Assembly: GCA_016199805.1 (NCBI GenBank)
Contig: JACQGC010000018.1
Coordinates: 5,219-69,218, forward strand
Length of the DNA stretch: 64,000 nucleotides
Origin: Candidatus Nomurabacteria bacterium
Lineage (GTDB): Bacteria; Patescibacteriota; Minisyncoccia; Phycocordibacterales; UBA9973
Direction: 5' to 3'
Numbering within the stretch: the first letter of the stretch is position 1; each line of letters begins with the position of its first letter. Below the pieces are notes generated by a model. It searched no databases. It had not been told where the DNA came from and saw only the letters and a program-made list of their open reading frames with translations. Positions 3,897 through 54,644 of the stretch are shown piece after piece. The position numbers and the translations under genes are program-made.

Positions 3897-4775
3897 ATGA
3901 AAAAATTTATTTTTCTGGTTTTTGCTTTTGTGTTTTTTGTGGGAGCTACTAAGGGCTTGGCTTTTGATATTCTAGCCAGACCGCAAAATTTTGTGAACGA
4001 CTACGCCGGAGTTCTTTCGGCGGAAAGCAAAAACGCGCTCGAGAGTAAAATTTCAAACTTCGAGAAACAAACAACTGACGAAATAGCGGTGGTCACAATC
4101 CCGTCCTTAGACGGAGACACGGTAGAAAATGTGGCGCAAGATATTTTCACCAAATGGGGCATCGGCAAAAAAGACAAAAATAATGGAGTGCTAATTTTAG
4201 TCGCCATTTCCGAACACAAGACCCGCATCCAGACCGGCTACGGAGTGGAGGGAGACCTCACCGACTTGGCGACTTCATACATGCAAAGCGAAATAATGGC
4301 CCCGGCTTTCAGGCAAAACGATTATTATTCCGGGCTCTCCGGCGCGGTGGATAAAATAATTGAATCCTTAAACGGTGGCAATGTCGTGCCCGAGGGATAT
4401 TCTTCATCCAAAAAATCAAACACAGATTGGAGTTTTATTTTCTTCCTCATGTTTATCGTTTTGCAGTGGGTTATCGCTATTTTAGGCAGGTCAAAATCTT
4501 GGTGGGGTGGCGGAGTGCTGGGGGCGGCTATCGGCGGAATAATCTGGTTTCTCGGATTGTTTTCTTTTACCATTTCGGCAGTCCTTTTTGCCTTCCTGAT
4601 AATTTTCGGGTTGGGGCTTGATTTTATTGTCTCGCGCGCTTACCAAAATGCGAAAAGCAAAGGCACACGTGTTCCTTGGTGGTTTGGTGGTGGCGGACCA
4701 GGTGGCGGTTCCGGAGGTTTTGGGGGATTTGGCGGCGGAATGTCGGGTGGTGGCGGTTCTTCGGGAGGCTGGTAG
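3897..4775 (+). CDS. TPM-domain protein (YgcG-like) with a Gly-rich C-terminus
   Basis: Signal peptide, then a TPM/methanol-dehydrogenase-like phosphatase domain (GVLILVAISEHKTRIQTGYG), TM segments and a GGGG tail. Confidence 0.8.
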   Translation: MKKFIFLVFAFVFFVGATKGLAFDILARPQNFVNDYAGVLSAESKNALESKISNFEKQTTDEIAVVTIPSLDGDTVENVAQDIFTKWGIGKKDKNNGVLILVAISEHKTRIQTGYGVEGDLTDLATSYMQSEIMAPAFRQNDYYSGLSGAVDKIIESLNGGNVVPEGYSSSKKSNTDWSFIFFLMFIVLQWVIAILGRSKSWWGGGVLGAAIGGIIWFLGLFSFTISAVLFAFLIIFGLGLDFIVSRAYQNAKSKGTRVPWWFGGGGPGGGSGGFGGFGGGMSGGGGSSGGW

Positions 4776-4802
4776 TTTGAATTCAGAATTACCACCCCTA
4801 AC

Positions 4803-4824
4803 CCCTCCTTAATCAAGGAGGGGA
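4803..4824. repeat. 22-bp perfect palindrome CCCCTCCTTAATCAAGGAGGGG (intergenic copy)
   Basis: Exact inverted symmetry. The identical 22-mer recurs at 38803-38824 inside a CDS. Confidence 0.7.
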
Positions 4825-4870
4825 GGAAAACAAAATTCCTATTTTTCAGTGTTTCTGTTATACTATTTTT

Positions 4871-5143
4871 ATGGAAATAAAGGATGTAGAAAATCTTGCC
4901 AATTTGTCCAGGATTGAATTGAGCGAAGAAGAAAAACAAGAAATCCTCAAAGACATGAAGGGTATTTTGGAGTATGTGAAGGTGGTGGAGGGCGTGCAAG
5001 TAGAAGACACAAAGCCGGAATATAATTTAAGAAATGTCTGGCGTGATGATGAAATAATTCCGCGCGAATTTTCACATGAGCTTATCACCGAACAATTCCC
5101 AGCATCACAGGATGGATTTTTAAAAGTAAAAAAGATTTTGTAG
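4871..5143 (+). CDS. gatC: Asp-tRNA(Asn)/Glu-tRNA(Gln) amidotransferase subunit C
   Basis: 90 aa reading LSRIELSEEEKQEILKDMKGILEYV; immediately upstream of gatA. Confidence 0.85.
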   Translation: MEIKDVENLANLSRIELSEEEKQEILKDMKGILEYVKVVEGVQVEDTKPEYNLRNVWRDDEIIPREFSHELITEQFPASQDGFLKVKKIL

Positions 5144-5147
5144 TAAA

Positions 5148-5257
5148 ACCTGTCCCGTACTAAATTTTTTAGAAAATATATTATGATAAAATATAATTAG
5201 AAAGAAAAAAGAAATGAAAATTATTAATAAAAATTTAAAATTTTAGTACTGGGATGA
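5148..5257 (+). repeat. bipartite stem-loop element (copy 1) between gatC and gatA
   Basis: acctgtcccgtactaaattt ... aatttaaaattttagtactgggATGa. The ends are inverted repeats (cccgtactaaa / tttagtactggg) around an AT-rich loop. A second copy lies at 47230-47306. The element ends in the gatA start codon. Confidence 0.45.
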
Positions 5258-6672
5258 TTGATATAGCCAAACTCACAATTGCAGAGGCGAGAAAAAAATT
5301 GGATGCAAAAGAATTTAGCGCGGTAGATTTGGCGCAGGCATATTTGGATGAAATAAAAAAGAAAAACAAAGAACTTAATGCTTATCTGGAAATTTTTGAT
5401 GATGTTTTGGAACAAGCCAAAGAAGTGGATGCTCGAATTGCCAAAGGGGAGTCGTATCCATTGCTCGGTATTCCTATGGCTATCAAAGATGTTATTTTGA
5501 TAAAAGGTAGGCGAGTTTCTGCCGCGTCGAAAATTTTAGAAAATTACAGAGCCACTTATGACGCTACAGTAATAACCAAATTAAAAAAACAAGGTGCAGT
5601 ATTTTTAGGCAGAACAAACATGGATGAATTTGCCATGGGAGGTTCCACAGAAAATTCTGCTTTCGGCCCGACCAGAAATCCACACGACACCAGAAGGGTT
5701 TCTGGGGGGTCTTCGGGTGGATCTGTGGCTGCAGTGGCCTCCAATATGGCCCTAGGAGCACTGGGTTCAGACACAGGGGGTTCTGTGCGAGAGCCGGCAT
5801 CTTTCTGCGGGATAGTGGGTATGAAGCCTACCTATGGCCGTGTATCGCGTTATGGGCTTATAGCCATGGGTTCTTCGTTGGATTGTATAGGCAGTATTGC
5901 TAAAAACACTGAAGATGCAAAAATTATCTATGATGCCATTTATGGGCATGACATCTTGGATAGTACGAGTATTGAAGATACCACTTATGCAAAACCCCAA
6001 ATAAAAAAAGTTATCGGCGTACCTTGGGATTTAGTCAACATGGAAGGGGTGGATGTGAAAGTCAAAGAAAATTTTAAACAGTCTATTTCTAAATTGGAAA
6101 ATCTTGGTTTCAAAATCAATGATATTTCCATAAAAAATATTGATATGGCTCTGGCGACTTACTATATTATTATGCCGGCGGAATCTTCCACAAACTTATC
6201 GCGTTTTGATGGAATGAGATATGGGTTACATAAAGATGGAAAAGATTTACTTGAAGACTATAGATTGACAAAGAGGGCAGGTTTCGGGAAGGAGGTTCGC
6301 AGGAGAATTTTGCTTGGCACATATGTGCTTTCTTCTGGATATTACGATGCCTATTATGGCAAGGCACAAATAGCTAGGAGCGCGTTAAAAGAGGAATTCG
6401 CGAAAGCGTTCAAGGATGTAGACATTGTAGCCACTCCGACTGCTCCATTTGTGGCTTGGAAAATAGGTGAAAAAAGTGATCCGCTGTCCGTATATCTTGC
6501 TGATATTTTTACCATTACGGCAAACATGGTTGGTATTCCGGCGATTTCTATACCCTCCGGTTTTTCGGAAGTAGAAGGCAAAAAATTGCCATTAGGAATT
6601 CAGTTTATGGCGCCACACGGGGCAGAGGACCTGCTTTTTGAAGTTGGTAAGAAGTTTGAGACAGTGTTATAA
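5254..6672 (+). CDS. gatA: Glu-tRNA(Gln) amidotransferase subunit A
   Basis: 472 aa with the amidase signature GGSSGGSVAAVAS and an LTIAEARKKL N-terminus. Confidence 0.9.
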   Translation: MIDIAKLTIAEARKKLDAKEFSAVDLAQAYLDEIKKKNKELNAYLEIFDDVLEQAKEVDARIAKGESYPLLGIPMAIKDVILIKGRRVSAASKILENYRATYDATVITKLKKQGAVFLGRTNMDEFAMGGSTENSAFGPTRNPHDTRRVSGGSSGGSVAAVASNMALGALGSDTGGSVREPASFCGIVGMKPTYGRVSRYGLIAMGSSLDCIGSIAKNTEDAKIIYDAIYGHDILDSTSIEDTTYAKPQIKKVIGVPWDLVNMEGVDVKVKENFKQSISKLENLGFKINDISIKNIDMALATYYIIMPAESSTNLSRFDGMRYGLHKDGKDLLEDYRLTKRAGFGKEVRRRILLGTYVLSSGYYDAYYGKAQIARSALKEEFAKAFKDVDIVATPTAPFVAWKIGEKSDPLSVYLADIFTITANMVGIPAISIPSGFSEVEGKKLPLGIQFMAPHGAEDLLFEVGKKFETVL

Positions 6673-6681
6673 TTTTTATAT

Positions 6682-7326
6682 ATGCAAACAGCTCAAGTTG
6701 TAGCGGAAAATAACCCCAACACCGGAACCTTCCTGGATTCCAGATACCTCGATCCGGGATATCTGTTTAATCACTTATTTCCCTATGTTAAAGATTTTTG
6801 GTTTTTTATCTCCAGTGACCAAGCCATAGCGGTTGAAAAAACCATCCTTGTTTTTCTGGCCATATTCTTTATCGCCATAATTTGCTACACATTTGTGCGT
6901 TTGTTTGAAATTCGAAAAAAAGAACATGCGCACCTGCATCACGAGATGAAGGAATATATGCACAACAAAACCGAGTACGAAAAACACCTGCGAGAAGAAG
7001 TCGGAGGTTCGAAAAATGAACGTTGGGGCAAGACATTAAACTATCTCTTTTCACAACATGGCAGTGATTGGAAACTGGCCATCATCGAGGCGGACTCTAT
7101 GCTCGAAGGCTTGCTCGACCAGCTCGGCTTCAAAGGGGACAACCTGGGTGACAAACTAAAATCTGCCAACCAAGAAAATTTTTCACAGCTTTCCACGGCT
7201 TGGGAAATTCATACTGTGCGAAACAGAATAGCCCACGAAGGACTAGCCTTTGAATTGACCCAGCATGAAGCCAAAAGAGTCATTGCCCTGTACGAGCAAA
7301 TCTTTCATAGTTACGGGTTTATATAA
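6682..7326 (+). CDS. hypothetical membrane-anchored protein
   Basis: 214-aa ORF with one TM (ILVFLAIFFIAIICYTFV) and a charged His-rich cytoplasmic part; no family recognised. Confidence 0.5.
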   Translation: MQTAQVVAENNPNTGTFLDSRYLDPGYLFNHLFPYVKDFWFFISSDQAIAVEKTILVFLAIFFIAIICYTFVRLFEIRKKEHAHLHHEMKEYMHNKTEYEKHLREEVGGSKNERWGKTLNYLFSQHGSDWKLAIIEADSMLEGLLDQLGFKGDNLGDKLKSANQENFSQLSTAWEIHTVRNRIAHEGLAFELTQHEAKRVIALYEQIFHSYGFI

Positions 7327-9463: not shown

Positions 9464-9538
9464 GCCGTCGTAGCTTAGCGGTAAAGCACGTCATTGGTAA
9501 TGACGAGACCAAGGGTTCGATCCCCTTCGACGGCTCCA
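9464..9538 (+). tRNA. tRNA-Thr (anticodon GGU)
   Basis: GCCGUCG/CGACGGC acceptor, anticodon stem CGUCA/UGACG with loop UUGGUAA, T-arm GGGUUCGAUCCCC, encoded CCA. Confidence 0.85.
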
Positions 9539-9546
9539 GGTTTTTT

Positions 9547-9619
9547 GCCGCTGTAGCTCAGGTAGTAGAGCAACGAATTCGTAATTCGTGGGTCGGATGT
9601 GCAAGTCATCCCAGCGGCT
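9547..9619 (+). tRNA. tRNA-Thr (anticodon CGU)
   Basis: GCCGCUG/CAGCGGC acceptor, anticodon stem ACGAA/UUCGU with loop UUCGUAA, T-loop UGCAAGU (same variant as the CAU tRNA). Confidence 0.85.
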
Positions 9620-9620
9620 C

Positions 9621-10508: not shown

Positions 10509-10590
10509 ATTCTTAAATAAAAAAAAGACGTGGGGTTTATCCCCCCACACCTCTTGCCAAGCCACATAAATCTGAAGTATTATTAAGCTT

Positions 10591-11358
10591 ATGAAAATAA
10601 AAATTGGTTTTCTGTTGGCCGTTTTGTTTTTTACTAGTGTGGGTTTTGTGCACGCCGCTGATTTAAATTTTACTAATAACACCAATATAAATATTGGAGC
10701 CAATACATATGTCATTACTGCCGGCTCAGTAGCCACTTCTCCGATGACTTTGAGCGCCACGACCCTGACGGTAACTGTGCCTGCCGGTACTTTTACCTTG
10801 CAATCTGCAAATGGTTTTGCCCTAGGCACAACCGGTAGCTTACCCCAATCCTGCAACGGCGGCACAAACCAAGTTATCATCACCGGAGTAGCCGGACCGA
10901 TAGTTATCACGCCAAACACTGGTTCAGTTGTCTGTCCTAGTAGTGGAAGTGTCACTTCTTCTGGCAGTGGCGGTTTAGTTTCCAGTGCACCATTACCACC
11001 CCCAGTCGTTACTCCACTACCAGCGACAACTCCACCTCCAACCGCAACCACTCCACCAGTCACAACTCCCACAACTCCAGTAACCACTCCAACCGGCAGT
11101 ACATCACAACCAACTGTAGCATCTCCCGTAACCTACAATTTAGGCACCACCACATTAAAGAATGGCAGTACCGGCAACGCCGTCAAAGAACTGCAAAGAT
11201 TTTTAAACAGCGACTTGAAGGCAAACATAGCGGTGGACGGCAAACTTGGACCGAAGACCATCGCCATCATCAAGAAATGGCAGAAAGCCCACAAGTTAAC
11301 CCCCGATGGTCTGATAGGGGCCAAGACCAAGAAATTGATGAATTCCTTAGCCAAGTAG
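10591..11358 (+). CDS. secreted Pro/Thr-rich protein with a C-terminal peptidoglycan-binding (PG_binding_1) domain
   Basis: Signal peptide, an ADLNFTNN motif, a PPVVTPLPATTPPPTATTPP linker, and a C-terminal GNAVKELQRFLN...DGKLGPKTIAIIKKWQKAHKLTPDGLIGAKT. Confidence 0.75.
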   Translation: MKIKIGFLLAVLFFTSVGFVHAADLNFTNNTNINIGANTYVITAGSVATSPMTLSATTLTVTVPAGTFTLQSANGFALGTTGSLPQSCNGGTNQVIITGVAGPIVITPNTGSVVCPSSGSVTSSGSGGLVSSAPLPPPVVTPLPATTPPPTATTPPVTTPTTPVTTPTGSTSQPTVASPVTYNLGTTTLKNGSTGNAVKELQRFLNSDLKANIAVDGKLGPKTIAIIKKWQKAHKLTPDGLIGAKTKKLMNSLAK

Positions 11359-11404
11359 TTTAAATTATTATTAAAATTATTAATTAAGTTTCGTAAAATC
11401 ACAA

Positions 11405-12052
11405 ATGCAAAATCAAAAAAAGTTTCTAATGAGTCTCGCCATATTACTAGCCGTCTTCTTTGTAGCTACCCAAGTCTTGGCTGACCTGACTTTCACCAAC
11501 AATTCCATCTCTGGCACCACAGCTTCTCTTTTAGACGTGGGAGCCGGGAACACCCTTTCATTACAAACCACCAACAATGGTCCGGTTACTTTCGGTAACG
11601 GTGCCATTACCATTGGCAACTTAGCCGGAGGTGGCATCAAATGTCTGCATGTTTCCAATACCGGAGTCGTCTCTGTGGCGGCGGCGGATTGTGGAGCGGG
11701 GGGAACAACTACTTTACAATTTTCTTTTATGTTGGGGGCTGACGGCGGAATTGCTTTAACGGATGGAATAGCTCAAAATACTATTTTCAGTAACCAACTC
11801 GGCAGAGGTATTCATATCACCAAGGTTTGGTGTGAGACGGATGCAGGAACTCCTACATTAAATATGAAAAAGCGCGGGGCTGGGTCCAACCTATTGTCAA
11901 GTAATTTAACTTGTACCACTTCCGGAGCTTCAGGCACGACATTTTCTTCAACTCAAGATGCATATGCTGATGGAGATATTATGGATTTCACATTAGCCAC
12001 AGCGACAACTGCGCGAAGGATTACAGTTGTAGTTCGTTACACTCTTGACTAA
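11405..12052 (+). CDS. secreted hypothetical protein (KCLHV-motif family, paralog of 48484-49233)
   Basis: Signal peptide plus ADLTFTNN; shares DxGAGNTL-x-QT..PVT.G.G..T.GNL..G..KCLHVxNTGxV..AAADCGxGG with the 48.5-kb ORF. Confidence 0.7.
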   Translation: MQNQKKFLMSLAILLAVFFVATQVLADLTFTNNSISGTTASLLDVGAGNTLSLQTTNNGPVTFGNGAITIGNLAGGGIKCLHVSNTGVVSVAAADCGAGGTTTLQFSFMLGADGGIALTDGIAQNTIFSNQLGRGIHITKVWCETDAGTPTLNMKKRGAGSNLLSSNLTCTTSGASGTTFSSTQDAYADGDIMDFTLATATTARRITVVVRYTLD

Positions 12053-12060
12053 ATAAAAAT

Positions 12061-13761
12061 ATGAAAAAACTAATTATATTTTTAATTTGCGTGATTGGTT
12101 TGGGTGCCACCACTGCTTTTGCCGCAACAGGCAAAGTAATTTATACAGGAACACCTATCGGTGACGGAACTATTGCCAATGTTTTTGACGGGAATTTTAC
12201 AAATGACTGGAATGGAACCAACGCCGGTTTTGATTTCGGCTCCGCCATCAATTTGACATCAATCAGGATGGCCATGTCATCATTTTACGGCACATAGTAT
12301 CCAGTTCCTGGCTCCGACACAGTGCAGAGGTCTCCAGATAATTCAACCTGGACGACTTTTCTGACATTTCCAAACTGGTCTCACCCGTATATCCCCAGGT
12401 ATCATTTTCTTGATACTGCAGTTTCACCAGGTGCGGCCTATAGATATTATCGCGTTTCTTCCGGTGGCAGTCCCGTAACATTTGGCGAATTGGAATTTGT
12501 CGGTAACGCAGGAGAGCCATCAAGCGGTTCGCGTCCGGTAGAACCGGTCGTCACACCTGCCGGTGGAGTGGCGCTTTATGGTTCTGTAACAATAAATATG
12601 TCGTCTCTGACAACGTCCGCGACGATGCATTACACGGTGGATGGGTCAACTCCGACATGCAGTAGTACGACATACAGTAGTCCGTTTACCTTGACCGTCG
12701 GAACAGCCACAGTGGTAAAAGCTGTGGCGTGCGATGCTACCTTGACCACTCAAGCATCACTTGTCACAACTTCCGGAACTTTTCGTAATTATGGAATTAA
12801 ACCAGCCGACACATCTTGGTCTGATGTTTCTGGGTATCCGAATTTTCACTCAGGAAGTATAATATTAGTAAACGGTCAGTATTACTATTTTACACAGTGG
12901 GAGGAGTCTTACAATCACGGAAGCGATCTGACTAACAATTCAGGTATTGAAATTTATAAAAGTTCTGATTTGCTGAATTGGACATGGGTTCAAGAAGTGC
13001 CTACTCCTAGTGCTCCGACTAATTGGTATTATGTTGAGAGACCCCATGTATTATACAATTCCAGTACATCAAAATATGTGATGTGGGCGCATTGTACCCA
13101 AACCCACGATGCCAACGACCGCGCTTGTATTTGGACAGCCAATGACCCGTCATCAACATGGACACTTCAAACCGCCACCCTCAACCCAACTGAGGGGGGA
13201 ACCGGGTACGGCTTTAAAGACTTCAACTTATTTCAGGAGTCAGATGGTAACGCTTATGTGGTTTACACCAGTGGCACACCAAATAACGCAGACAACTGGA
13301 TTGCCAAACTCACATCAGACTATTTAAATGTTACAGGTACTGATTATTTGCATCTAAATGCTGGAGTAAGTCGCGAAGCCCCGGTGCTGTTTAAACGTGG
13401 GTCAGCCTACTTCCTTATCACTTCTGCGTCCAACTACTATAATTTTAATGCAACTTTTGATGTCCAATACCAAACCAATATCGGAGCTTCACCACTGGCG
13501 AATAGTTGGTCGGCTTTAAATACCAATTATTTTTATACTTCTGATCCTATCGGAACTGCAAACAATGCTCAACCTACAGCAGTTCTTAATCTCGGCGGGG
13601 ACAACTGGCTTTATTTGGCGGACCACTGGCTAAGCACTGATTTACAACACTCAACTCGGGTTTGGTATATGCTTCGATTTCCAACGGGTACAACCATAGC
13701 ACCACCAAATCCACTACCAGCACAATGGGATATTCCACGACCCCAACGAAGGATGATGTAA
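12061..13761 (+). pseudogene. secreted F5/8 type C (discoidin) domain plus GH43-like beta-propeller protein, interrupted by an in-frame TAG (12295-12297)
   Basis: Both pieces (12061-12297 and 12322-13761) are in the same frame. The discoidin fold spans the stop (FDGNFTNDWNG..FDFG..IRMAMSSFYGT*YPVPGSDTVQRSPDNSTWTTF..YRYYRV). Downstream EAPVLFKRGSAYFLITSA and NGQYYYF are GH43-like. Confidence 0.6.
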
Positions 13762-31443: not shown

Positions 31444-31481
31444 TAGTTTGAATTTTTGCAAATTTTTGGTAAAATAAAGAG

Positions 31482-32027
31482 ATGATGGATAAATTAAAAT
31501 TTGCTCTATTTTCAATAGTCGTTTTGGCTGTAGTCGGACTCATCGGGTATTGGGCTGTGGTCACCATCCAGTCCGGCAGTGAATTTGGAACAACCCAAAA
31601 AATTACCCAACTACAAAAAGAAAACGAAGATTTGACGAAACAATTGGCAGACCTGACTGACAAATTAAATACGCTTACACCAGAGCCGGTGGATACCACC
31701 CCTGTGGCCCAGAATCCAGATCCCCAAACACCGACTACCCCGACACAACCGACCACATATAAAAACCAATCTCTCGTAAACGAATTGCAGGTGCTTGTAT
31801 CCAATAAAGTGTTTATGAAATTAAAATCAAGCGGTACCCGGGTGGGCACCGTGCAGAAATTCTTAAATCTTTACAACAAAACTTCCAACAAAATTGATAA
31901 TGATTACGGAGCAAACATGGTCAAAGCTGTGTCCGCCTTTCAAAAAGACCAGGGTCTTTCCGCCGATGGACAAGCGGGTCCAAGCACCTACAGCAAAATG
32001 ATTGATTGGCTCAAGAAGCAGGGATAA
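31482..32027 (+). CDS. membrane-anchored protein with a putative peptidoglycan-binding domain
   Basis: TM, coiled coil, Pro/Thr linker, and C-terminal GTRVGTVQKFLN...VSAFQKDQGLSADGQAGPSTY (PG_binding_1-like). Confidence 0.6.
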   Translation: MMDKLKFALFSIVVLAVVGLIGYWAVVTIQSGSEFGTTQKITQLQKENEDLTKQLADLTDKLNTLTPEPVDTTPVAQNPDPQTPTTPTQPTTYKNQSLVNELQVLVSNKVFMKLKSSGTRVGTVQKFLNLYNKTSNKIDNDYGANMVKAVSAFQKDQGLSADGQAGPSTYSKMIDWLKKQG

Positions 32028-40617: not shown

Positions 40618-42360
40618 GTGGAATCACAAACTAAACAGTGCCAGAATTGCCAGAAAGACTTTATAATAGAGCCGGATGATTTCGGTTTTTACGAGAAAAT
40701 AAAAGTCCCTCCGCCGACCTTTTGCCCGGAATGCCGGCTACAAAGGCGCTTGGCCTGGCGTAACGAGCGGGCCTTGTACAAACGCAAGTGCGGTTTATGC
40801 CAAAAAAGTATTATTGCAATGTATCATGAATCCATGCCATTTCCCGTATATTGTCGAGAGTGTTGGTTCGGAGATGGATGGGACCCAACTTTATATGGAA
40901 AGAAATACGATTTCAATAGAACATTTTTCGAACAATATAAAGAATTTTCAAATACTGTGCCCAGGCTAGCTTTGTGGCAAAGGAGTTCTACAAATTCAGA
41001 TTATTCCAATATGGTTGGAGAATCGAAAAATGTATATCTATCTTCTTCGGTTGTAAAAGAATCAGAAAATGTTTTTTATTCAAAGTCGGTAGATAGATCC
41101 AGAGATATCGTTGATTGTTTAAATATAATAAACGGATCAGAGAGTTTGTATGAGAACGTGGAAGCACAAAGTAATTATAATTCTCAATATCTTTTACTCT
41201 GCAGGAGTTGTTTGGATTCATACTATTCTGTTGATTGTATAAATTGTAGTAATTGTTTTCTTTCTTACAATTTGCGAAATAAAAAATTTTGTATTCGCAA
41301 TCAGCAATATGAAAAGGAAGATTATTTTAAGAAAATAGAAAAATTAAATTTAAGGAGCAGGGCTTCACGTGATTTTTTGCTGGAAGAATTTGCAGAAATT
41401 AAAAAGAAGGCAATTTATCGTTTTGGAAATATCACTAAATGTATTAATGTGACAGGAAATAATCTTTTGAATGTAAAAAATGGTAAAGATTGTTTTGAAA
41501 TTTATGATGTGGAAAATGCGAAATATTGTTATCGAGCGTTTAATCTCAAAGACTGTATGGATTTTGATTATGGAGGGTGGTCAGAATTGATGTATGAGTA
41601 CGTAACTGGCAGTCTAAATGATTATAATGTTAAATTTAGTTATTCTGCGATGGAATCCGTAAGAAATGCCGATTATACGGAATTTTGTCGAAATTGTTCT
41701 AATCTGTTTGGTTGTATTTCACTTAAAAATACAGAAAATGCAATTCTGAATATAATTTATTCCAAGGAAGAATACGAAAAACTCCGGACGCAAATCATGG
41801 AACATATGAATAGCAATCCATTTATAGACAAAGCAGGCAAAGTTTATCGATATGGAGAATTTTTTCCTATAGAAGTTTCTCCTTGGGTATATAATGAGAC
41901 TTTGTCTCAGGAATTTTTCCCAATTACCAAAGAAGAGGCGGAGAGGAATGGTTATCCATGGCGGGAACCGGATGTAAAAAATTTCGAGATTACAATTCCT
42001 ACAGAAAACATTCTGGACAATATTGACGATGTTAGTGAAGATATTTTAAAAGATGTTCTGGGTTGTGCCCACGCAGGAGAGTGTGCTCATCAATGCAATA
42101 CTGCTTTTCGTTTAACAAACTATGAACTGGTTTTTTATAAAAAACATAACATACCGCTTCCAATTCTTTGCCCCAACTGTCGTTATTACGAAAGATTCAA
42201 AGTTATGCCAGCATTGAAATTATGGCACAGGCAATGCATGTGTGATAAGAAACACACGCACCATGAGGGCAGATGCGAGATTGAATTTGAGACCAGCTAT
42301 GCGCCAGATAGGCCGGAAATAGTATATTGTGAAAAGTGTTACCAGCAGGAGGTTTACTAG
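40618..42360 (+). CDS. 580-aa cysteine-rich protein with N- and C-terminal zinc-ribbon modules and a central Asn/Ser/Cys repeat region
   Basis: GTG start after an extended -10 (GCTATAAT). Termini: CQNC-17-CPECRLQRR...C.LC and CPNCRYYERF...C.C, each with the shared FY.K..(V/I)P.P..CP.CR motif. The middle has about 20-aa periodic repeats (C.NCSN.F...). Confidence 0.6.
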   Translation: MESQTKQCQNCQKDFIIEPDDFGFYEKIKVPPPTFCPECRLQRRLAWRNERALYKRKCGLCQKSIIAMYHESMPFPVYCRECWFGDGWDPTLYGKKYDFNRTFFEQYKEFSNTVPRLALWQRSSTNSDYSNMVGESKNVYLSSSVVKESENVFYSKSVDRSRDIVDCLNIINGSESLYENVEAQSNYNSQYLLLCRSCLDSYYSVDCINCSNCFLSYNLRNKKFCIRNQQYEKEDYFKKIEKLNLRSRASRDFLLEEFAEIKKKAIYRFGNITKCINVTGNNLLNVKNGKDCFEIYDVENAKYCYRAFNLKDCMDFDYGGWSELMYEYVTGSLNDYNVKFSYSAMESVRNADYTEFCRNCSNLFGCISLKNTENAILNIIYSKEEYEKLRTQIMEHMNSNPFIDKAGKVYRYGEFFPIEVSPWVYNETLSQEFFPITKEEAERNGYPWREPDVKNFEITIPTENILDNIDDVSEDILKDVLGCAHAGECAHQCNTAFRLTNYELVFYKKHNIPLPILCPNCRYYERFKVMPALKLWHRQCMCDKKHTHHEGRCEIEFETSYAPDRPEIVYCEKCYQQEVY

Positions 42361-42441: not shown

Positions 42442-44322
42442 TTGCACCACTTTTTTGTAATTTGGCGTATAATATGGGGTATGAGCAAAAAATCACACAA
42501 AAGAATATTTGGTTTTTCATTTTTAATTTTAACAATAATGTTTTTGTCTTTTACCAGTAAGGCTTTTGCCATGACTCCCACATTGTCGCTTTCTCCGACA
42601 GGGGACGGGGACTCGGTGCAAGTAAATGTCACCGGCGACCCGAATTCCAGTGTGCTTATTTTCTATATTAAAACCGGGTCTGGTCCACAGACTCTTTCTC
42701 TCGGAACTACCAATACAAACGGGACTTTGACAAACACAGTCAGTACTTCAAACTATGGTGTGGCGGCAGGCAGTTCGGTGTATATCACTACGGGTGGCAT
42801 CAATGGTGCCCATTCCAACACAGTAGCTTGGCCGGCAGTCAGTTCTCTTCTCTCTAGCAGTAACATGCTGACCTTGAGCCAGACGGGCCTCGTGCTCACC
42901 CTCGGGCAAGCTATGTCTGTTACCGCCACCAATCTGAACAACAGTCAGCTTTATCAAGCCAGCAATACCAGTCCGCAAATCGCAAATTTTAGCATCAGTG
43001 GCTCTCAAATAAATGTCACCGCCAACAGCTACGGCACCACCACGGCTTCTTTTTGCTTGATTAACAACACTTCAAACTGTGGAAGTATTTATGTCATCGT
43101 TCAAAGCAGCAGTGCGCAACCGCTCACCTTCAGCCAGAGCAGTGTGACACTGTCTCCAGGGCAAACTGTCTCCGTACAAATTTCCGGCGGTTCCGGAGTT
43201 TATTCGGTGCTCAATAATTCCAGTCAAAACAATGGTGTGGTTACGACCAGTATCTCTAGTAGCACCATCACTTTGACCACGAGTGGTACGACCGGTTCGT
43301 CATCTATAACTGTTTGTTCTACAGACATGAATTCTTGCGGTATCATCAACGTGACTATCGGCAATACTGTTTCTTCGGCAGTTTCATTTAGTCAGCAAAA
43401 CCCAACCCTTGCCGTAGCCCAAAGTCTGAACATCAGTATTTTTGGTCCGACCAACAGCTTATTTTATGTGAATTCAAATTCAAACCCAAGCATCGTTCAA
43501 GCCAATCTCTCGGGTAGCACTCTAACTCTTCTTGGAATCACCACCGGCTCTTCGACAATAAGTATCTGTGCCTCTACGAGTAATTGTGCCAATTTGAGTG
43601 TAACCGTCAGCACTAGTTCGAGTGGTGGGGCGTTGATTTTGAGCCAACAAAGTGTAAATCTTTCTGTTGGGCAGACGAGTACAGTGACAATTTCCGGAGG
43701 CACGATGCCATACAATATTTTCACAAACTCCAGTAATATTTTTCAAGCAACTTTAAATAGTAATATACTTACACTCGTAGGTTTGAGTAACGGAACTTCT
43801 CTTATGAACGTATGTTCTGCGGGAGGGAATTGCCTAACATTATCTGTGTATGTGGGAGTAACCAATCCCAATGCCTTGCCTACAGGTTGTGTATCTACGA
43901 CGGGTTTTAGCCAGACGACTGGCCAGTCGTGCAATACCACAACCACAACCACAACCACTACCAATACATACGTACCCGTAGATTGCACCGGGGCCGCTTT
44001 TAGTGTTTCTACTGGAGTGGCTTGTCCCGCCAACACTATTACCACTACTCCCGTAACTACGGTCACTGTTCCAGACGATACTATCAACACTCCGACAACG
44101 AGCACTGCCTTTAAATTCACCAAAGCAATCAAGCTTGGCTCAAAAGGCGCAGAAGTTACGCAGCTACAGAAAAAATTAAAAACTCTGGGATATTTTAATA
44201 CCACAGCCACCGGAACCTTTGGCCCCATTACAGAAAAAGCAGTCAAAGCATTTCAAAAAGCACACAAACTTCCGCAAGTGGGCAATGTGGGACCGCTCAC
44301 GCGCGCGCTTCTCAATAAATAA
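42442..44322 (+). CDS. cell-surface protein: signal peptide, five Ig-like (about 80-aa) repeats, Thr-rich stalk, C-terminal PG_binding_1 domain
   Basis: Tandem repeats (L.LSQ..V.L..GQ..SV...)...C..L.V. C-terminus GSKGAEVTQLQKKLKTLGYF...FGPITEKAVKAFQKAHKL. Confidence 0.7.
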   Translation: MHHFFVIWRIIWGMSKKSHKRIFGFSFLILTIMFLSFTSKAFAMTPTLSLSPTGDGDSVQVNVTGDPNSSVLIFYIKTGSGPQTLSLGTTNTNGTLTNTVSTSNYGVAAGSSVYITTGGINGAHSNTVAWPAVSSLLSSSNMLTLSQTGLVLTLGQAMSVTATNLNNSQLYQASNTSPQIANFSISGSQINVTANSYGTTTASFCLINNTSNCGSIYVIVQSSSAQPLTFSQSSVTLSPGQTVSVQISGGSGVYSVLNNSSQNNGVVTTSISSSTITLTTSGTTGSSSITVCSTDMNSCGIINVTIGNTVSSAVSFSQQNPTLAVAQSLNISIFGPTNSLFYVNSNSNPSIVQANLSGSTLTLLGITTGSSTISICASTSNCANLSVTVSTSSSGGALILSQQSVNLSVGQTSTVTISGGTMPYNIFTNSSNIFQATLNSNILTLVGLSNGTSLMNVCSAGGNCLTLSVYVGVTNPNALPTGCVSTTGFSQTTGQSCNTTTTTTTTTNTYVPVDCTGAAFSVSTGVACPANTITTTPVTTVTVPDDTINTPTTSTAFKFTKAIKLGSKGAEVTQLQKKLKTLGYFNTTATGTFGPITEKAVKAFQKAHKLPQVGNVGPLTRALLNK

Positions 44323-47229: not shown

Positions 47230-47306
47230 ACCTGTCCCGTACTAAATTTCACCTAAAAACAAATGACCACTATTATTAACAATTTAAAATTTTAGTACTG
47301 GGATGA
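47230..47306 (+). repeat. bipartite stem-loop element (copy 2) between the thioredoxin-like and DsbB-like genes
   Basis: Same end sequences as 5148-5257, including the ...tagtactgggATGa start-codon context. Confidence 0.45.
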
Positions 47307-47854
47307 ACCCTGTCACCATTCACTATTTAAACGTTTCTCTGGGGTTTGGGGTTATCATTGCCCAGATTTTTTGTGTCGTGGCTTTATTTTTACTGTTTTT
47401 CGGACCGAAAAAGAATTTTTATCTTGATTTCATAAACAAGCATGTTCTCATTTTGGGGTTTTTGATTTCTTTTGTCTCCGCGGTGTTTCCCTTAGTCTAT
47501 TCCGAAATCATTCATTTTCTGCCGTGTTATCTGTGCTGGTGGCAGAGAGTTTTTATGTTCCCGTTGGTGCTGATGTTCGCAGTTGCTTTATGGGACAAAG
47601 ACAGAAAAGTGATTCGTTATGCTCTGCCACTGCTCTGTGCGGGTTTCCTTGTCTCTCTATATCAGAATTTTTTCTATTATTTTGGAGAAAGTTCGGCTTT
47701 ACCCTGCGACGCATCCGGAGTTTCCTGTTATCAGCACCTAGTTTCCGAATTTGGCGGGTACATTTCAATACCAATGATGGCGCTCACGGCCTTTTTTGCC
47801 TTGCTGACTCTTCTGGTTGTTGCTCATTTTTATGGAAAGAATAAAATAGATTAG
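47303..47854 (+). CDS. DsbB/BdbC-like disulfide bond formation protein
   Basis: 4 TM with paired Cys motifs (LPCYLCWWQR and C..SGVSC). Confidence 0.7.
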   Translation: MNPVTIHYLNVSLGFGVIIAQIFCVVALFLLFFGPKKNFYLDFINKHVLILGFLISFVSAVFPLVYSEIIHFLPCYLCWWQRVFMFPLVLMFAVALWDKDRKVIRYALPLLCAGFLVSLYQNFFYYFGESSALPCDASGVSCYQHLVSEFGGYISIPMMALTAFFALLTLLVVAHFYGKNKID

Positions 47855-48483: not shown

Positions 48484-49233
48484 ATGCAAAATAAAAAAAT
48501 ATTCTATACAGTTCTGTTTGTTTTTGTTTTATTCGGTTTTGCTTCTATGGCGGCCGCATCGGTCACGATTAGCGGTACTAGTATCATCGGTACAGTCGGT
48601 TCTACTATAGATATCGGAGCTGGCAACACTCTTTTAATCCAAACTGTCGGGAACGCTCCTGTCACCATAGGCACCGGTCTGGTTACCTTGGGTGGTAATT
48701 TGAAAATTGTCGGTCTGGCTGGCAGTGGCACAAAATGTCTGCATGTGGACAATACTGGAGCGGTAGGTTTAGCTGCAGCGGATTGCGGCAGTGGTGGAGG
48801 CTCGCAACCTACGATTTTTAGCAGTGGCACAGCTGTTCAACAAGCAGTGGAGTGCGCGCATGGCACTGTCGGCACAGCCCAACTCTCCGGATTGGCGGCT
48901 GGTGCAAGTGGTGAAGTCACTCTTCAAACAGGGATTTCCGGTGATGTAAGGTGGCAAGGTATTTTACTTTCTGAAACAACTCAATTTACCGGCACAAACT
49001 TAACAGTCTCAATGGGACGCCCAGGTTCTACTACTCACGCCGAAATGACAAATGGAGTTAACTTTCCTTTAGGAGTAGGTTCTAGTGACACAAATTATTT
49101 CAGTACTCGTCCAATACCACCACAAATCACAAGTACTTACGGTGTTGTGTTAAATTTTGCTGTTACTTCCGGAAACGTCAATGCTTCCACTGGCTCTCTG
49201 ACCTGGGAAATGTGCGGATACAAAGCTCGCTAG
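48484..49233 (+). CDS. secreted hypothetical protein (KCLHV-motif family, paralog of 11405-12052)
   Basis: IDIGAGNTLLIQTVGNAPVTIGTGLVTLGGNLKIVGLAGSGTKCLHVDNTGAVGLAAADCGSGGG aligns with the 11.4-kb ORF. Confidence 0.7.
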   Translation: MQNKKIFYTVLFVFVLFGFASMAAASVTISGTSIIGTVGSTIDIGAGNTLLIQTVGNAPVTIGTGLVTLGGNLKIVGLAGSGTKCLHVDNTGAVGLAAADCGSGGGSQPTIFSSGTAVQQAVECAHGTVGTAQLSGLAAGASGEVTLQTGISGDVRWQGILLSETTQFTGTNLTVSMGRPGSTTHAEMTNGVNFPLGVGSSDTNYFSTRPIPPQITSTYGVVLNFAVTSGNVNASTGSLTWEMCGYKAR

Positions 49234-49251
49234 GTTTTACGCAAAAAATCT

Positions 49252-51558
49252 ATGAAAAAAAATTTAATCTTTTATTTTATTTTTATAATCTTGTTGGGAT
49301 TTTCCGTGAATGTCGGAGCTTTGCACGCCGGTGCGCCGATTGGTATGGGTCCCGGAGGGAAGGTGGATTTATTTGATTGGTATAATGCCACGGCCTCAGG
49401 TTGTTCGCCAAGTAGTCCTTTTCCGGCTTTGATGTGTGTAGGTGGCGCGGCAAGTTCCAAACCCCAAGGCGATACGTATTACTTTAGTGCGTGGCTTCCC
49501 AATGCATCCCAATTGCCCGTGACAACCGGACTACCTCTTGTGGGAACTTTTAACGATGGAACGTCTCAAAACTGTAATGGCAATTTGGCTCTTATGCAAC
49601 TAGCTGCGTTTGATTGGAGTAATAGAAATGCAAGTAAAATATCAGAAGTAAATTGTATGTCAGGGTATAGTCCTGGTTCAAATGTACCCGCCGGGTGGTT
49701 TGCTCATTGCACCAGTGGCGATGACGGAGTGGGAAATACCTGTGGTTGGAAGACACGTTCTCCACTTTCAAAAGGTGGGCTGATATATTTGCCTATGGAA
49801 AGACAAATTGGTAGTGGTGCTGCGTCGGCTCATGACTCTACAGTAATAGTATCTCCAGATTCAGGTGCTCATTGGTGCAATCCGTACACAGTTACCAATC
49901 GTGCTGGAAGTCCAGGATGCGACAGCAGTAATTGGTCTGCCACAGGGGACGCTCCAAAATGCGGAGCAGCCAGTGGAACATCCGGTGTACAATGCTTGGA
50001 CGCAGCTTATGCAGGAGGGATGATGTGGCACAATATGCCAGCATCAGTCAACGGAACACCAATTTATAATTGGAATTTTTATCAATACGGGCAGGACGGT
50101 TCTCTTCCCGCGAATATAGGAGGTGATTGCGACCCTGCAACATATACTTGCGCAATGCTTGATGACGGAAGTATCGCTCGTGTATTAAATACCGATTTAC
50201 CATCACTTGATGTGACAAAATGGCAGTATGTAGCAAGTACTGATGCACAATCAAATCCCACTTGGACTTCAACATTTACCAGCCGAAAGTCCGTTATTGC
50301 TTTTTCTCCGAACAGTGACAACGATTTAATGAAACCGCGAGGAATTCTTAGCGCACCGGTTTATATAAAAGAATTTAAATCTTATATTTTAACTGGGTTC
50401 AAGTATGGTCCAAGTAGGGTTGAGTTTTTATCTTCTCCTAGCGCATTTGGTCCATTTAAGCCTATTGGAATATTTCCCGGATATATTGGGTTTAATGCCG
50501 CAAATTTGGGTATAGGGTATACAGTGGTATCCACAAACCCGCCACACGTTCAAATAACAGTCGTGGCAGATGAAAAAAGTTTTGCTGGAGCAGGCGGCGG
50601 AGTGCCAACTTTCCAAAAATTTGACCTCGTGCTTGGTCCTCAGTATGGCGGTGTGGGAGATGTTCCGTCATATTTAGACACGAGTATGGGAAAAGTTAAT
50701 TCCGGATGGCAATTTACATCCGGGGAAGAGCCGGGAACATTCATTCGCAAAGGTCTTATTTGGGCTTTTGATTTTATGGACCATGGTGGAGTTACTGCCA
50801 GTACTTATCAATTCTTTCATGATGTTGCCAACGGCGGAGCAGTGATGTCACCATGTTTTACAGATGGGGCAACAAATTGCAATGATGGAATTATGGGTTT
50901 GAAGGGGTTAAGTTTACTTACGAATGGAATACGAATTCAAGATGGATATTCTGCACGCTATGAATCAAATATATCGGACATCAATAGAGGTACTACAGCG
51001 GGCAACCAGAATGCGCCTTCGGTTATGCAGGGAAATGGCACGTATTCCGTTGTTGGTATTTACAAACTGGACTCTATCGGATACACGACATCTTTGTGGA
51101 TAACAGGTAACCCATCAGACGGAAATGCATCAGTCGGTCTAACGACTCAGCAAACAACAGGCTATATGGGAATTGACTGGGGTAATGTTTATACTTTCAG
51201 ATGGGCTTACAGAAGTGCGTTTGCCCCTATAGCCGGGAATTGGTATTTTATGTCGGCTACAGTAACTGCTGGCAGTCCTCCCACTGCAAAATTATGGGTT
51301 GGTGGAGCGGTAACTCCCGGTGTGCTCACAGATGTAATATCTGGCGTCTCTAGGACAAAAAATGGTGGAACCCCTGCTACTGTTCCGGCAGTTTCAGCCG
51401 GACCACTTGTTCTTGAAAATGACGGTTCAGGACACATTCCAAATGCATCTTATGCTGGATTGATGCTTTACAATCGTGCTCTCAGTGATACAGAAAATCA
51501 ACAATTATATCAAAGCTTTAAAATTAAAATGAAGGAGAGAAACATTATTATTCAATAA
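49252..51558 (+). CDS. large secreted protein with a C-terminal LamG/concanavalin-like jelly-roll domain
   Basis: Signal peptide; 768 aa; C-terminal ...WYFMSATV...LWVGG...LMLYNRALSDTENQQLY typical of LamG_3. Confidence 0.6.
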   Translation: MKKNLIFYFIFIILLGFSVNVGALHAGAPIGMGPGGKVDLFDWYNATASGCSPSSPFPALMCVGGAASSKPQGDTYYFSAWLPNASQLPVTTGLPLVGTFNDGTSQNCNGNLALMQLAAFDWSNRNASKISEVNCMSGYSPGSNVPAGWFAHCTSGDDGVGNTCGWKTRSPLSKGGLIYLPMERQIGSGAASAHDSTVIVSPDSGAHWCNPYTVTNRAGSPGCDSSNWSATGDAPKCGAASGTSGVQCLDAAYAGGMMWHNMPASVNGTPIYNWNFYQYGQDGSLPANIGGDCDPATYTCAMLDDGSIARVLNTDLPSLDVTKWQYVASTDAQSNPTWTSTFTSRKSVIAFSPNSDNDLMKPRGILSAPVYIKEFKSYILTGFKYGPSRVEFLSSPSAFGPFKPIGIFPGYIGFNAANLGIGYTVVSTNPPHVQITVVADEKSFAGAGGGVPTFQKFDLVLGPQYGGVGDVPSYLDTSMGKVNSGWQFTSGEEPGTFIRKGLIWAFDFMDHGGVTASTYQFFHDVANGGAVMSPCFTDGATNCNDGIMGLKGLSLLTNGIRIQDGYSARYESNISDINRGTTAGNQNAPSVMQGNGTYSVVGIYKLDSIGYTTSLWITGNPSDGNASVGLTTQQTTGYMGIDWGNVYTFRWAYRSAFAPIAGNWYFMSATVTAGSPPTAKLWVGGAVTPGVLTDVISGVSRTKNGGTPATVPAVSAGPLVLENDGSGHIPNASYAGLMLYNRALSDTENQQLYQSFKIKMKERNIIIQ

Positions 51559-51576
51559 GGTGTATAATTATAAATT

Positions 51577-54035: not shown

Positions 54036-54644
54036 ATGCTGGGTTTTACCCAAAAAGAAAAAGCATTGTTCCAAAAATTAAACACCCCATCAAAAGTGCA
54101 AGATTTTTTGAACAGTTTGAAGTTTAATTTTGAAAGGGGCGGGGAGACATTAAAAAGCCCACTTTTTACTAGTAGGCATAAGAATGCGCATTGCTTTGAA
54201 GCTGCGCTCCTCGGGGCTTATATGCTCTCCCTGCAGGGTTTTAAGCCTTATTTGGTTCATCTAAAGTCTACCATAGAGGATTACGACCACGTGATTGCGC
54301 CTTTTAAAATAGGTGGATTTTGGGGAGCTTTATCCAAAACTAATCATGCTGTCCTGCGATACCGCGAACCAATTTACAAAAACATCCGCGAGCTGGCTAT
54401 GTCGTATTTTCATGAATATTTTTTAAATAGTGGAGAAAAAACCTTAAGGCAATATTCAGAATTATTTAATTTGAATAATTTAAATAAAGATTGGGTAACC
54501 AGAGAGGGGAACCTTTGGGATATAGATAAAAAGCTTGATAAAATAAAACATTATGACATTGTGCCAAAAGTTTATATAAAGAAATTGAGAAAAGCGGACA
54601 ACTTAGAAATTAAGGCGGGGAAAATTGTGGAATGGAAAAAGTAG
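54036..54644 (+). CDS. hypothetical protein
   Basis: 202 aa, soluble; a conserved Cys/His (AHCFEAALLGAY) suggests a possible papain/transglutaminase-like fold but this is unconfirmed. Confidence 0.5.
   Translation: MLGFTQKEKALFQKLNTPSKVQDFLNSLKFNFERGGETLKSPLFTSRHKNAHCFEAALLGAYMLSLQGFKPYLVHLKSTIEDYDHVIAPFKIGGFWGALSKTNHAVLRYREPIYKNIRELAMSYFHEYFLNSGEKTLRQYSELFNLNNLNKDWVTREGNLWDIDKKLDKIKHYDIVPKVYIKKLRKADNLEIKAGKIVEWKK

Follow-up and report, generated by a model that had tools for sequence, protein, structure and literature searches.

Bdellovibrio bacteriovorus forms mosaic adhesive trimer (MAT) fibres, in whose proteins the signal peptide is followed by a conserved domain and the tips are mosaic, TNF-like lectins among them (PMC10769870). 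In host-attached Paceibacteria, extracellular proteins with peptidoglycan-binding domains have been reported among the most highly expressed (PMC10936435). Studies of how CPR bacteria find and hold their hosts have so far dealt mainly with type IV pili in Saccharibacteria, little being established for the large Parcubacteria/Paceibacteria branch. The present analysis concerns a 64,000-nucleotide stretch of DNA (the window), which is part of a 78.8-kb contig and is ordinary chromosome of Candidatus Nomurabacteria bacterium, a member of the candidate phyla radiation (CPR). Two gene clusters within it each combine a secreted protein of a small family (K1, K2), a wall-anchored stalk protein (S1, S2) and a large secreted protein related in fold or sequence to glycosidases (G1, L2). 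The K proteins share a constant N-terminal module, here termed Kn, and carry exchangeable C-terminal heads. We give about an even chance to the reading that these clusters constitute a surface adhesin fibre kit, recognising and perhaps trimming foreign glycans on a host cell or polymer.

All six genes lie on the plus strand, in the order S-K-G in cluster 1 and K-L-S in cluster 2, at the positions proposed in a previous interpretation made from the letters only (the sequence-only reading).
10591-11358, plus strand: S1 (cluster 1), minimal stalk protein of 255 aa with signal peptide, S-domain, Pro/Thr linker and PG_binding_1
11405-12052, plus strand: K1 (cluster 1; HY311_03685)
12061-13761, plus strand: G1 (cluster 1), secreted GH43-type glycosidase gene with CHB_HEX_C_1 and an in-frame TAG at 12295-12297
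48484-49233, plus strand: K2 (cluster 2; HY311_03935, 249 aa), the start ATG at 48484 agreeing with the NCBI protein
49252-51558, plus strand: L2 (cluster 2; HY311_03940), secreted protein of 768 aa with a predicted beta-propeller (about aa 30-560) and a ConA/LamG-like lectin domain (about aa 590-745)
51577-54033, plus strand: S2 (cluster 2), stalk protein of 818 aa with signal peptide, Gly_rich_2, DUF5018 (Ig-like) repeats, S-domain, Pro/Thr linker and PG_binding_1

Neighbouring genes are 46 and 8 nt apart in cluster 1, and both gaps of cluster 2 measure 18 nt. Direct inspection of the sequence shows that each of the six products starts with a Sec-type signal peptide that ends in an AxA-like site. 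Each locus is a compact operon on one strand that exports three envelope proteins. The modular envelope system previously suggested is borne out in so far as these are secreted proteins built as modules; the glycan capture and the host attachment by an episymbiont that had been offered as examples of its use are inferred roles. Conversely, the description of the two loci as paralogous clusters holds only in part: the K and S pairs are true paralogues over part of their length, but G1 and L2 are analogues and the gene order differs. The pattern holds, and the loci prove to be more structured than had been proposed in the sequence-only reading.

The K proteins are divided as follows.
11405-11707, plus strand: K1 signal peptide and Kn, including the KCLHV...AADCG hairpin (Kn profile E = 2e-40)
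11708-12052, plus strand: K1 C-terminal head (about 114 aa) and stop, unrelated to the K2 head
48484-48804, plus strand: K2 signal peptide and Kn, including the KCLHV...AADCG hairpin, assigned from identity to K1 and the Kn profile
48841-49233, plus strand: K2 C-terminal head and stop, a predicted jelly-roll beta-sandwich of the TNF/C1q/phage-cement type

K1 and K2 had been taken for paralogues, and over residues 1-105 they are, with 50% identity (E = 6e-28). No alignment is obtained beyond this point, and homology of the heads was rejected, as hhalign of the K1 head against the K2 family gave a probability of 0.15%. The motif GAGNTL...KCLHV...AADCG, by which a secreted family had been delimited, is indeed present in both proteins and is confined to their open reading frames (ORFs) when all six frames of the window are considered. 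The element that defines the family is, however, the shorter Kn, a conserved module of about 50-80 aa lying between the signal peptide and a variable shaft and head, with the approximate consensus A-[SA]-L-T-F-x(2)-N-A-I-T-G-T-x-A-S-x-I-D-[LV]-G-A-G-N-x-L-S-L-Q-T-T-N-N-G-P-I-T-T-G-x-G-L-x-T-x-G-G. In K proteins, the residues that would form the mature N-terminus once the signal is cleaved at the predicted site show strong conservation.

An exhaustive search of 1.84 billion (1.84e9) cluster representatives with the Kn profile returned 180 proteins at E ≤ 0.001, 96 of them at E ≤ 1e-10. A word-indexed profile search gave 64 proteins in three sets, sharing respectively the N-terminal part only, the K2 C-terminal domain only and the K1 C-terminal domain only. 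When 163 retrieved family members were re-scanned, 159 matched the Kn profile; the module fell inside the first 70 residues in 145 of these, and the KCLHV...DCG hairpin proved to be an add-on found in 16, most members being without the cysteines. Their lengths run from 57 to 2538 aa (median 331), and the C-terminal regions of 136 members separate into 32 similarity groups. The Kn family is thus rare and sharply defined. The four species-representative genomes with a match all belong to the Patescibacteria: two are Nomurabacteria, one is Wolfebacteria and one is unclassified. The KCLHV proteins gave no sequence match in Pfam, NCBIfam, PHROG or the PDB, in agreement with the previous statement that their family has no assigned function, and searches of IMG/VR and of 50,697 phage genomes turned up no relatives.

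Among described systems, the MAT fibres (PMC10769870) come nearest to the Kn proteins in logic. By description the two are alike in layout, and exchangeable tips are found in Kn proteins as well, both in the 32 tip groups and in the L016/L022 pair of loci described below. They differ in that Kn is shorter than the MAT N-domain (about 50-80 against about 130 aa), in that many are short proteins with little shaft, in that a PG_binding_1 stalk gene frequently stands beside their genes, and in that they come from a CPR cell presumed to be monoderm.

Many of the variable ends are of a kind known from phages. Among 121 Kn members, Pfam detected Beta_helix in 4, NosD in 2 and YadA_head in 2, and PHROG matches to the same set comprised virion structural proteins (17), tail spikes (15) and two tail-fibre families (12 and 8). 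The family shares with phage tail fibres and spikes the constant N-terminus and variable C-terminus, the tip homology seen in PHROG and, in some members, a right-handed beta-helix; it differs by its Sec signals, its housekeeping context and the lack of relatives in viral collections. Direct evidence of exchange comes from two loci, L016 and L022, which have the same gene string rpiB, rpe, tktN, tktC, K, pfkB, with flank identities of 78% (rpe), 89% (tktN), 90% (tktC) and 82% (pfkB). Their K proteins (L016, 4896-6080; L022, 8001-9011) have the first 54 aa in common at 72% identity and nothing beyond; one ends with YadA-like repeats (P0062), the other with a domain recorded as PF26696 PTL_trimer in precomputed annotations. 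As judged by these alignments, the pair is a direct case of replacement of the C-terminal tip with retention of Kn.

Two side observations concern K genes that stand alone. The Kn protein of L010 (9974-11710) has a right-handed beta-helix (Pfam Beta_helix/NosD) resembling tail-spike depolymerases, and its C-terminal motif YADNTAALAGGLVAGDPYRT is found again in P0055 and P0062. Weak matches to an IS200-like transposase (Y1_Tnp) adjoin solo K genes in L004 (9098-9844) and on the P0060 contig (3869-4564); a similar ORF beside the L016 K gene (6123-6863) gave no Pfam match. Such neighbours might help to move or swap cassettes.

Structure prediction of a KCLHV protein, which had been put forward as a check, was informative for the head of K2 but not for Kn. 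The model, built from a 47-sequence alignment, has a mean predicted local distance difference test score (pLDDT) of 70, reaching 80-89 in head residues 120-249, which model as a compact TNF/C1q-like jelly roll. Among predicted viral structures it matched collagen-like/C1q proteins and phage fibre proteins, and the structural neighbours of the head include phage cement and fibre proteins. Jelly rolls of this type are commonly found at the ends of trimeric fibres, and many bind sugars. Unlike BclA of the Bacillus exosporium and other collagen-like fibres with C1q/TNF heads, K2 contains no collagen repeat in this genome and has no sequence likeness to them. The K1 head, which also terminates P0053, P0056 and a 619-aa K protein of L002, gave no PDB or Pfam match, and PDB sequence searches with K2, the K1 head and L2 yielded nothing useful. 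In combination, the constant N-terminus and variable C-terminus, the replacement of tips of the phage receptor-binding type, a K2 fold that suits a fibre cap, and the presence of Sec signals suggest exported fibres of an adhesin-like kind, in which the K proteins would be displayed at the surface, perhaps as trimers, and would bind a ligand.

The stalk proteins contain the following domains.
10657-10995, plus strand: S1 S-domain, about 100 aa with two conserved Cys (hidden Markov model match E = 2.2e-33)
11170-11340, plus strand: S1 PG_binding_1, aa 194-250 (Pfam E = 5e-11)
53296-53646, plus strand: S2 S-domain (hidden Markov model match E = 1.1e-41)
53845-54015, plus strand: S2 PG_binding_1 (Pfam E = 3.4e-11)

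The earlier description of S1 and S2 as stalks with nearly identical PG_binding_1 anchors is upheld as regards the anchor, which is present in both (PF01471; 43.1 bits in S1 and 43.6 bits in S2, cut-off 23, covering profile positions 1-57 of 57) within final 60-aa segments that are 73% identical. The corresponding DNA is only 66% identical, and recent gene conversion of the two tails was therefore rejected. S2 is, however, more than the low-complexity protein it had been called, as it holds the Gly_rich_2 and DUF5018 regions, and its aa 27-392 match PHROG 2295 (E = 4.6e-40). The likeness between the two stalks runs upstream from the tail via the Pro/Thr linker into the two-Cys S-domain (S1 80-255 against S2 633-818, 46% identity). 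The S1 S-domain aligns to S2 574-690 and to S-type proteins of L002, L003 and L006, and the S-type proteins of L002 and L006 are 58-67% identical to the S2 S-domain. A profile search for the S-domain family returned two fragments only, missed even the S proteins of the window itself, and so carries no information on family size. Although the mature N-termini of S1 (ADLNFTNN) and K1 (ADLTFTNN) are similar, homology between Kn and the S-domain was rejected (hhalign probability 1%). Pfam and NCBIfam scans detected no catalytic lysin domain in S1 or S2, which thus match the PG_binding_1 profile in full but differ from lytic proteins of this group in having the S-domain and Pro/Thr stalk in place of an enzyme domain, together with passengers in S2.

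Four PG_binding_1 proteins are encoded in the window, and the S-domain is confined to S1 and S2. The other two lie at 31473-32024 (184 aa) and 42442-44322 (626 aa, with a T2SS-T3SS_pil_N-like region); their tails are much less like those of S1 and S2 than S1 is like S2. The 626-aa protein has as its upstream neighbour a 580-aa ORF (40618-42357) of unusually low GC content (35%), with no Pfam match.

Conservation of the gene arrangement in other CPR genomes, which had been named as a test, was found for cluster 2 but not for the triad of cluster 1. The order K2-L2-S2 recurs in three other CPR contig sets, with K2/L2 identities to the window of 86%/64% in L005, 64%/47% in L008/L001 and 54%/37% in L006/L007. 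The third gene retains the Ig-like repeats and/or the S-domain and tail, with varying N-terminal passengers (LamG in L006; Cadherin-like and Flg_new_2 in L008). Minimal S proteins of 255-317 aa, consisting of signal, S-domain, linker and PG_binding_1, directly adjoin K not only in cluster 1 but in L003 (Wolfebacteria), L024 and L012/L013, the last with two tandem K genes, and L002 combines two large K genes with Kelch-like proteins and an S-type protein carrying Fn3 repeats. After collapsing orthologues, K and S are linked in five independent groups (cluster 1; cluster 2 with L006 and L008; L002; L003 with L024; L012 with L013). Solo K genes stand amid housekeeping genes in L009/L010, L004/L017, L016, L022/L023 and the P0060 contig. 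A common insertion hot spot after a release-factor gene was considered and dropped, since the gene that the L005 triad follows is only 35% identical to prfB of the window, hence the other release factor, and the loci are not equivalent.

These data bear on the possibility that the clusters are no functional unit, and that independent secreted proteins are co-located because CPR genomes cluster fast-evolving surface genes, with the shared architecture partly a coincidence. The unlike gene order and non-homologous third components of the two clusters are as such a view expects; the S1-K1-GH43 arrangement was not met with a second time, K genes often stand alone, and PG_binding_1 proteins, at four in 64 kb, are common. 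Chance co-location accounts poorly, however, for the persistence of K2-L2-S2 (18-nt gaps in the window) while K2 identity between orthologues drops from 86% to 54%, or for the presence of the S-domain next to K in four or more other, distant CPR loci. We rate this explanation as rather improbable.

The large proteins had been described as carbohydrate-binding or hydrolase-like, G1 with discoidin and GH43-like parts and L2 as LamG-like. For G1 the GH43 assignment stands: the ORF from 12322 scores 56.3 bits against Glyco_hydro_43 (cut-off 32.2) and also contains CHB_HEX_C_1, and the nearest solved relatives are GH43 exo-beta-1,3-galactanases (3vsf, E = 2.7e-28; 7bys, E = 1.3e-20; about 300 residues). 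The discoidin domain does not, as no discoidin/F5_F8_type_C match was obtained in Pfam with either stop-bridged residues 1-245 (E ≤ 0.01) or the separate parts (E ≤ 0.1). The in-frame TAG separates the signal-peptide part (12061-12294) from the remainder; no intact frame joins signal peptide and catalytic domain, and the downstream part would be without a signal peptide. The TAG could reflect a pseudogene, an assembly error or read-through. G1 is a sequence member of GH43 that carries an in-frame stop.

L2, modelled from a 55-sequence alignment (pLDDT 88, predicted template modelling score 0.86), gave no Pfam match, hence no sequence likeness to CAZy-type Pfam families. Still, by fold its C-terminal domain is of the Concanavalin A-like lectin/Laminin_G_3 type, as proposed, and resembles the accessory domain of GH43 arabinanase, and the propeller resembles GH183/GH43. 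L2 thereby shares the layout of propellers with a ConA-like accessory domain (AbnA, 5ho0) at the fold level only. Three Asp residues of L2, D74, D203 and D510, are invariant. No sequence homology was detected between G1 and L2. Both clusters therefore hold a propeller-type glycosidase-like protein, but by sequence only G1 can be placed in a known family.

The pair formed by the K2 head and L2 extends beyond the CPR. Proteins of about 230-400 aa with differing N-termini, including some of Candidatus Solibacter, end in a domain that shares about 53-68% identity with the head. In L018 (Solibacter; 3989-6941) and L025 (6001-9013) the gene directly behind the K2-head gene encodes an L2 homologue, with 37-39% identity along the entire protein. 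Sulfatase and glycosyltransferase genes lie close by, and neither Kn nor a wall-anchor gene is present. L019, L020/L021 and L026 have the K2 head without L2. These alignments suggest a pair shared across phyla (Acidobacteria and CPR), which would be older or more mobile than the CPR operon. Where the relatives have an unrelated N-terminus the CPR copy has Kn, which fits a role of Kn as a lineage-specific presentation module. The family is also an example of a head-plus-partner pair reused across phyla.

The same proteins could belong to a polymer-scavenging secretome, in which G1 and L2 act as glycosidases assisted by carbohydrate-binding K heads and lectin domains, the S proteins hold the enzymes close to the wall, and the cell feeds on environmental polysaccharide. 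The galactanase-type relatives of G1, the GH183/GH43-like propeller and arabinanase-type accessory domain of L2, and the occurrence of the head-L2 pair beside sugar-related genes in free-living Acidobacteria are all compatible with feeding. The interrupted frame of G1 is not, many Kn genes are solo with no enzyme gene nearby, and feeding leaves unexplained why tips of the phage receptor-binding type are replaced between close relatives. A real but small chance is accorded to this explanation.

Under the adhesin-fibre reading, S1 and S2 would be tied to the cell's own peptidoglycan by the C-terminal PG_binding_1 domain, and the Pro/Thr linker would extend the S-domain outward, S2 also holding out its Gly-rich and Ig-like passengers. 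Kn would serve as the constant end that retains or presents the K protein at the cell surface, and the C-terminal head as the ligand-binding end, swapped by recombination. G1, possibly inactivated, and L2 would be glycan-cutting or glycan-binding partners. Expression of the cluster genes is plausible by analogy with the proteins of host-attached Paceibacteria mentioned above. The S-domain stalk is a natural candidate for the partner of Kn because of gene adjacency only, and docking of Kn on S proteins is proposed tentatively, with our own judgement inclining against it.

Several observations weigh against the adhesin-fibre reading. The TAG at 12295-12297 splits G1 within its N-terminal domain, and the Kn portion of the K2 model is of low confidence (pLDDT about 50). 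Four independent K groups have no S neighbour, and the S protein of L008 lacks the S-domain; given these solo loci and L008, docking of Kn on S is not obligatory and may be wrong. Likewise, as the acidobacterial head-L2 pair occurs without Kn or S, its function need not concern episymbiosis. An extended version, in which Paceibacteria-type CPR cells recognise their hosts by means of the Kn family, with secreted trimers plugged via Kn into an S-domain pedestal, heads captured from phages and from other phyla such as Acidobacteria being swapped to change the host glycan, and propeller/lectin enzymes opening the host coat, is judged unlikely. A small family with a constant N-terminal module, swappable phage-like tips and a recurrent wall-anchor partner makes concrete experiments possible, and the tip type could serve to predict host range. 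If the K proteins prove to be no more than secreted proteins of the usual kind, what is gained in practice is improved annotation for about 180 protein clusters.

The strongly conserved mature N-terminus of the K proteins, the Cys pair in the KCLHV extension and a DsbB-like gene upstream of cluster 2 would also suit a polymerising surface filament of the Ena, TasA or donor-strand pilus type, its subunits linked through the N-terminus and the two Cys forming inter-subunit disulfides. Pilins keep one subunit fold, however, whereas the C-terminal regions of Kn members are too heterogeneous (57-2538 aa); most members are without the cysteines, and Ena matched no better than many other jelly rolls. 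Such a filament is very unlikely. A prophage or tailocin remnant, with K proteins as tail fibres fitted to a baseplate by Kn and PG_binding_1 proteins as lysis proteins, is scarcely credible, for although tail-fibre, tail-spike and virion PHROG matches occur in many members, S2 27-392 matches PHROG 2295, the PG_binding_1 tails match endolysin PHROGs and the K2 head has phage cement and fibre proteins as structural neighbours, all six proteins carry Sec signals, a catalytic lysin domain is missing from S1 and S2, genes for capsid, terminase, tail tube and integrase are absent from the surroundings of both clusters, and the absence of Kn relatives from IMG/VR and phage genomes, together with the housekeeping neighbours, indicates a cellular rather than a viral system.

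Those neighbours are two tRNA-Thr genes and prfB upstream of cluster 1, ftsE/ftsX and pyrG downstream of it, and, upstream of cluster 2, the DsbB-like gene (47303-47854; Pfam E = 4.5e-07) and a small secreted ORF. Given the conserved Cys pairs in the Kn extension and the S-domain, the DsbB-like neighbour suggests that extracytoplasmic disulfide formation may matter. Right after S2, at 54036-54644, a 202-aa protein with a weak Vasohibin-like match (E = 3e-4, under the cut-off) is encoded, which is not kept beside the triad in other loci.

The GC content at third codon positions (GC3) of the cluster genes is 0.32-0.45, below the background of 0.453 ± 0.056 (mean of 20 other window genes). Recent transfer from high-GC Acidobacteria was rejected on composition, the GC3 of the clusters being lower than background, not higher. 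A mild GC3 offset, with values of 0.32-0.40, spans 48484-54033 and 11711-13761. Promoter and terminator scans gave counts close to shuffle expectation, the sole notable promoter-like site being a 10/12 match at 10554-10583, ahead of S1. The tRNA-Thr pair (GGT and CGT) occupies 9464-9620, immediately upstream of prfB, and overlaps the mechanically listed GTG start of prfB at 9588; the true start of prfB consequently lies further downstream.

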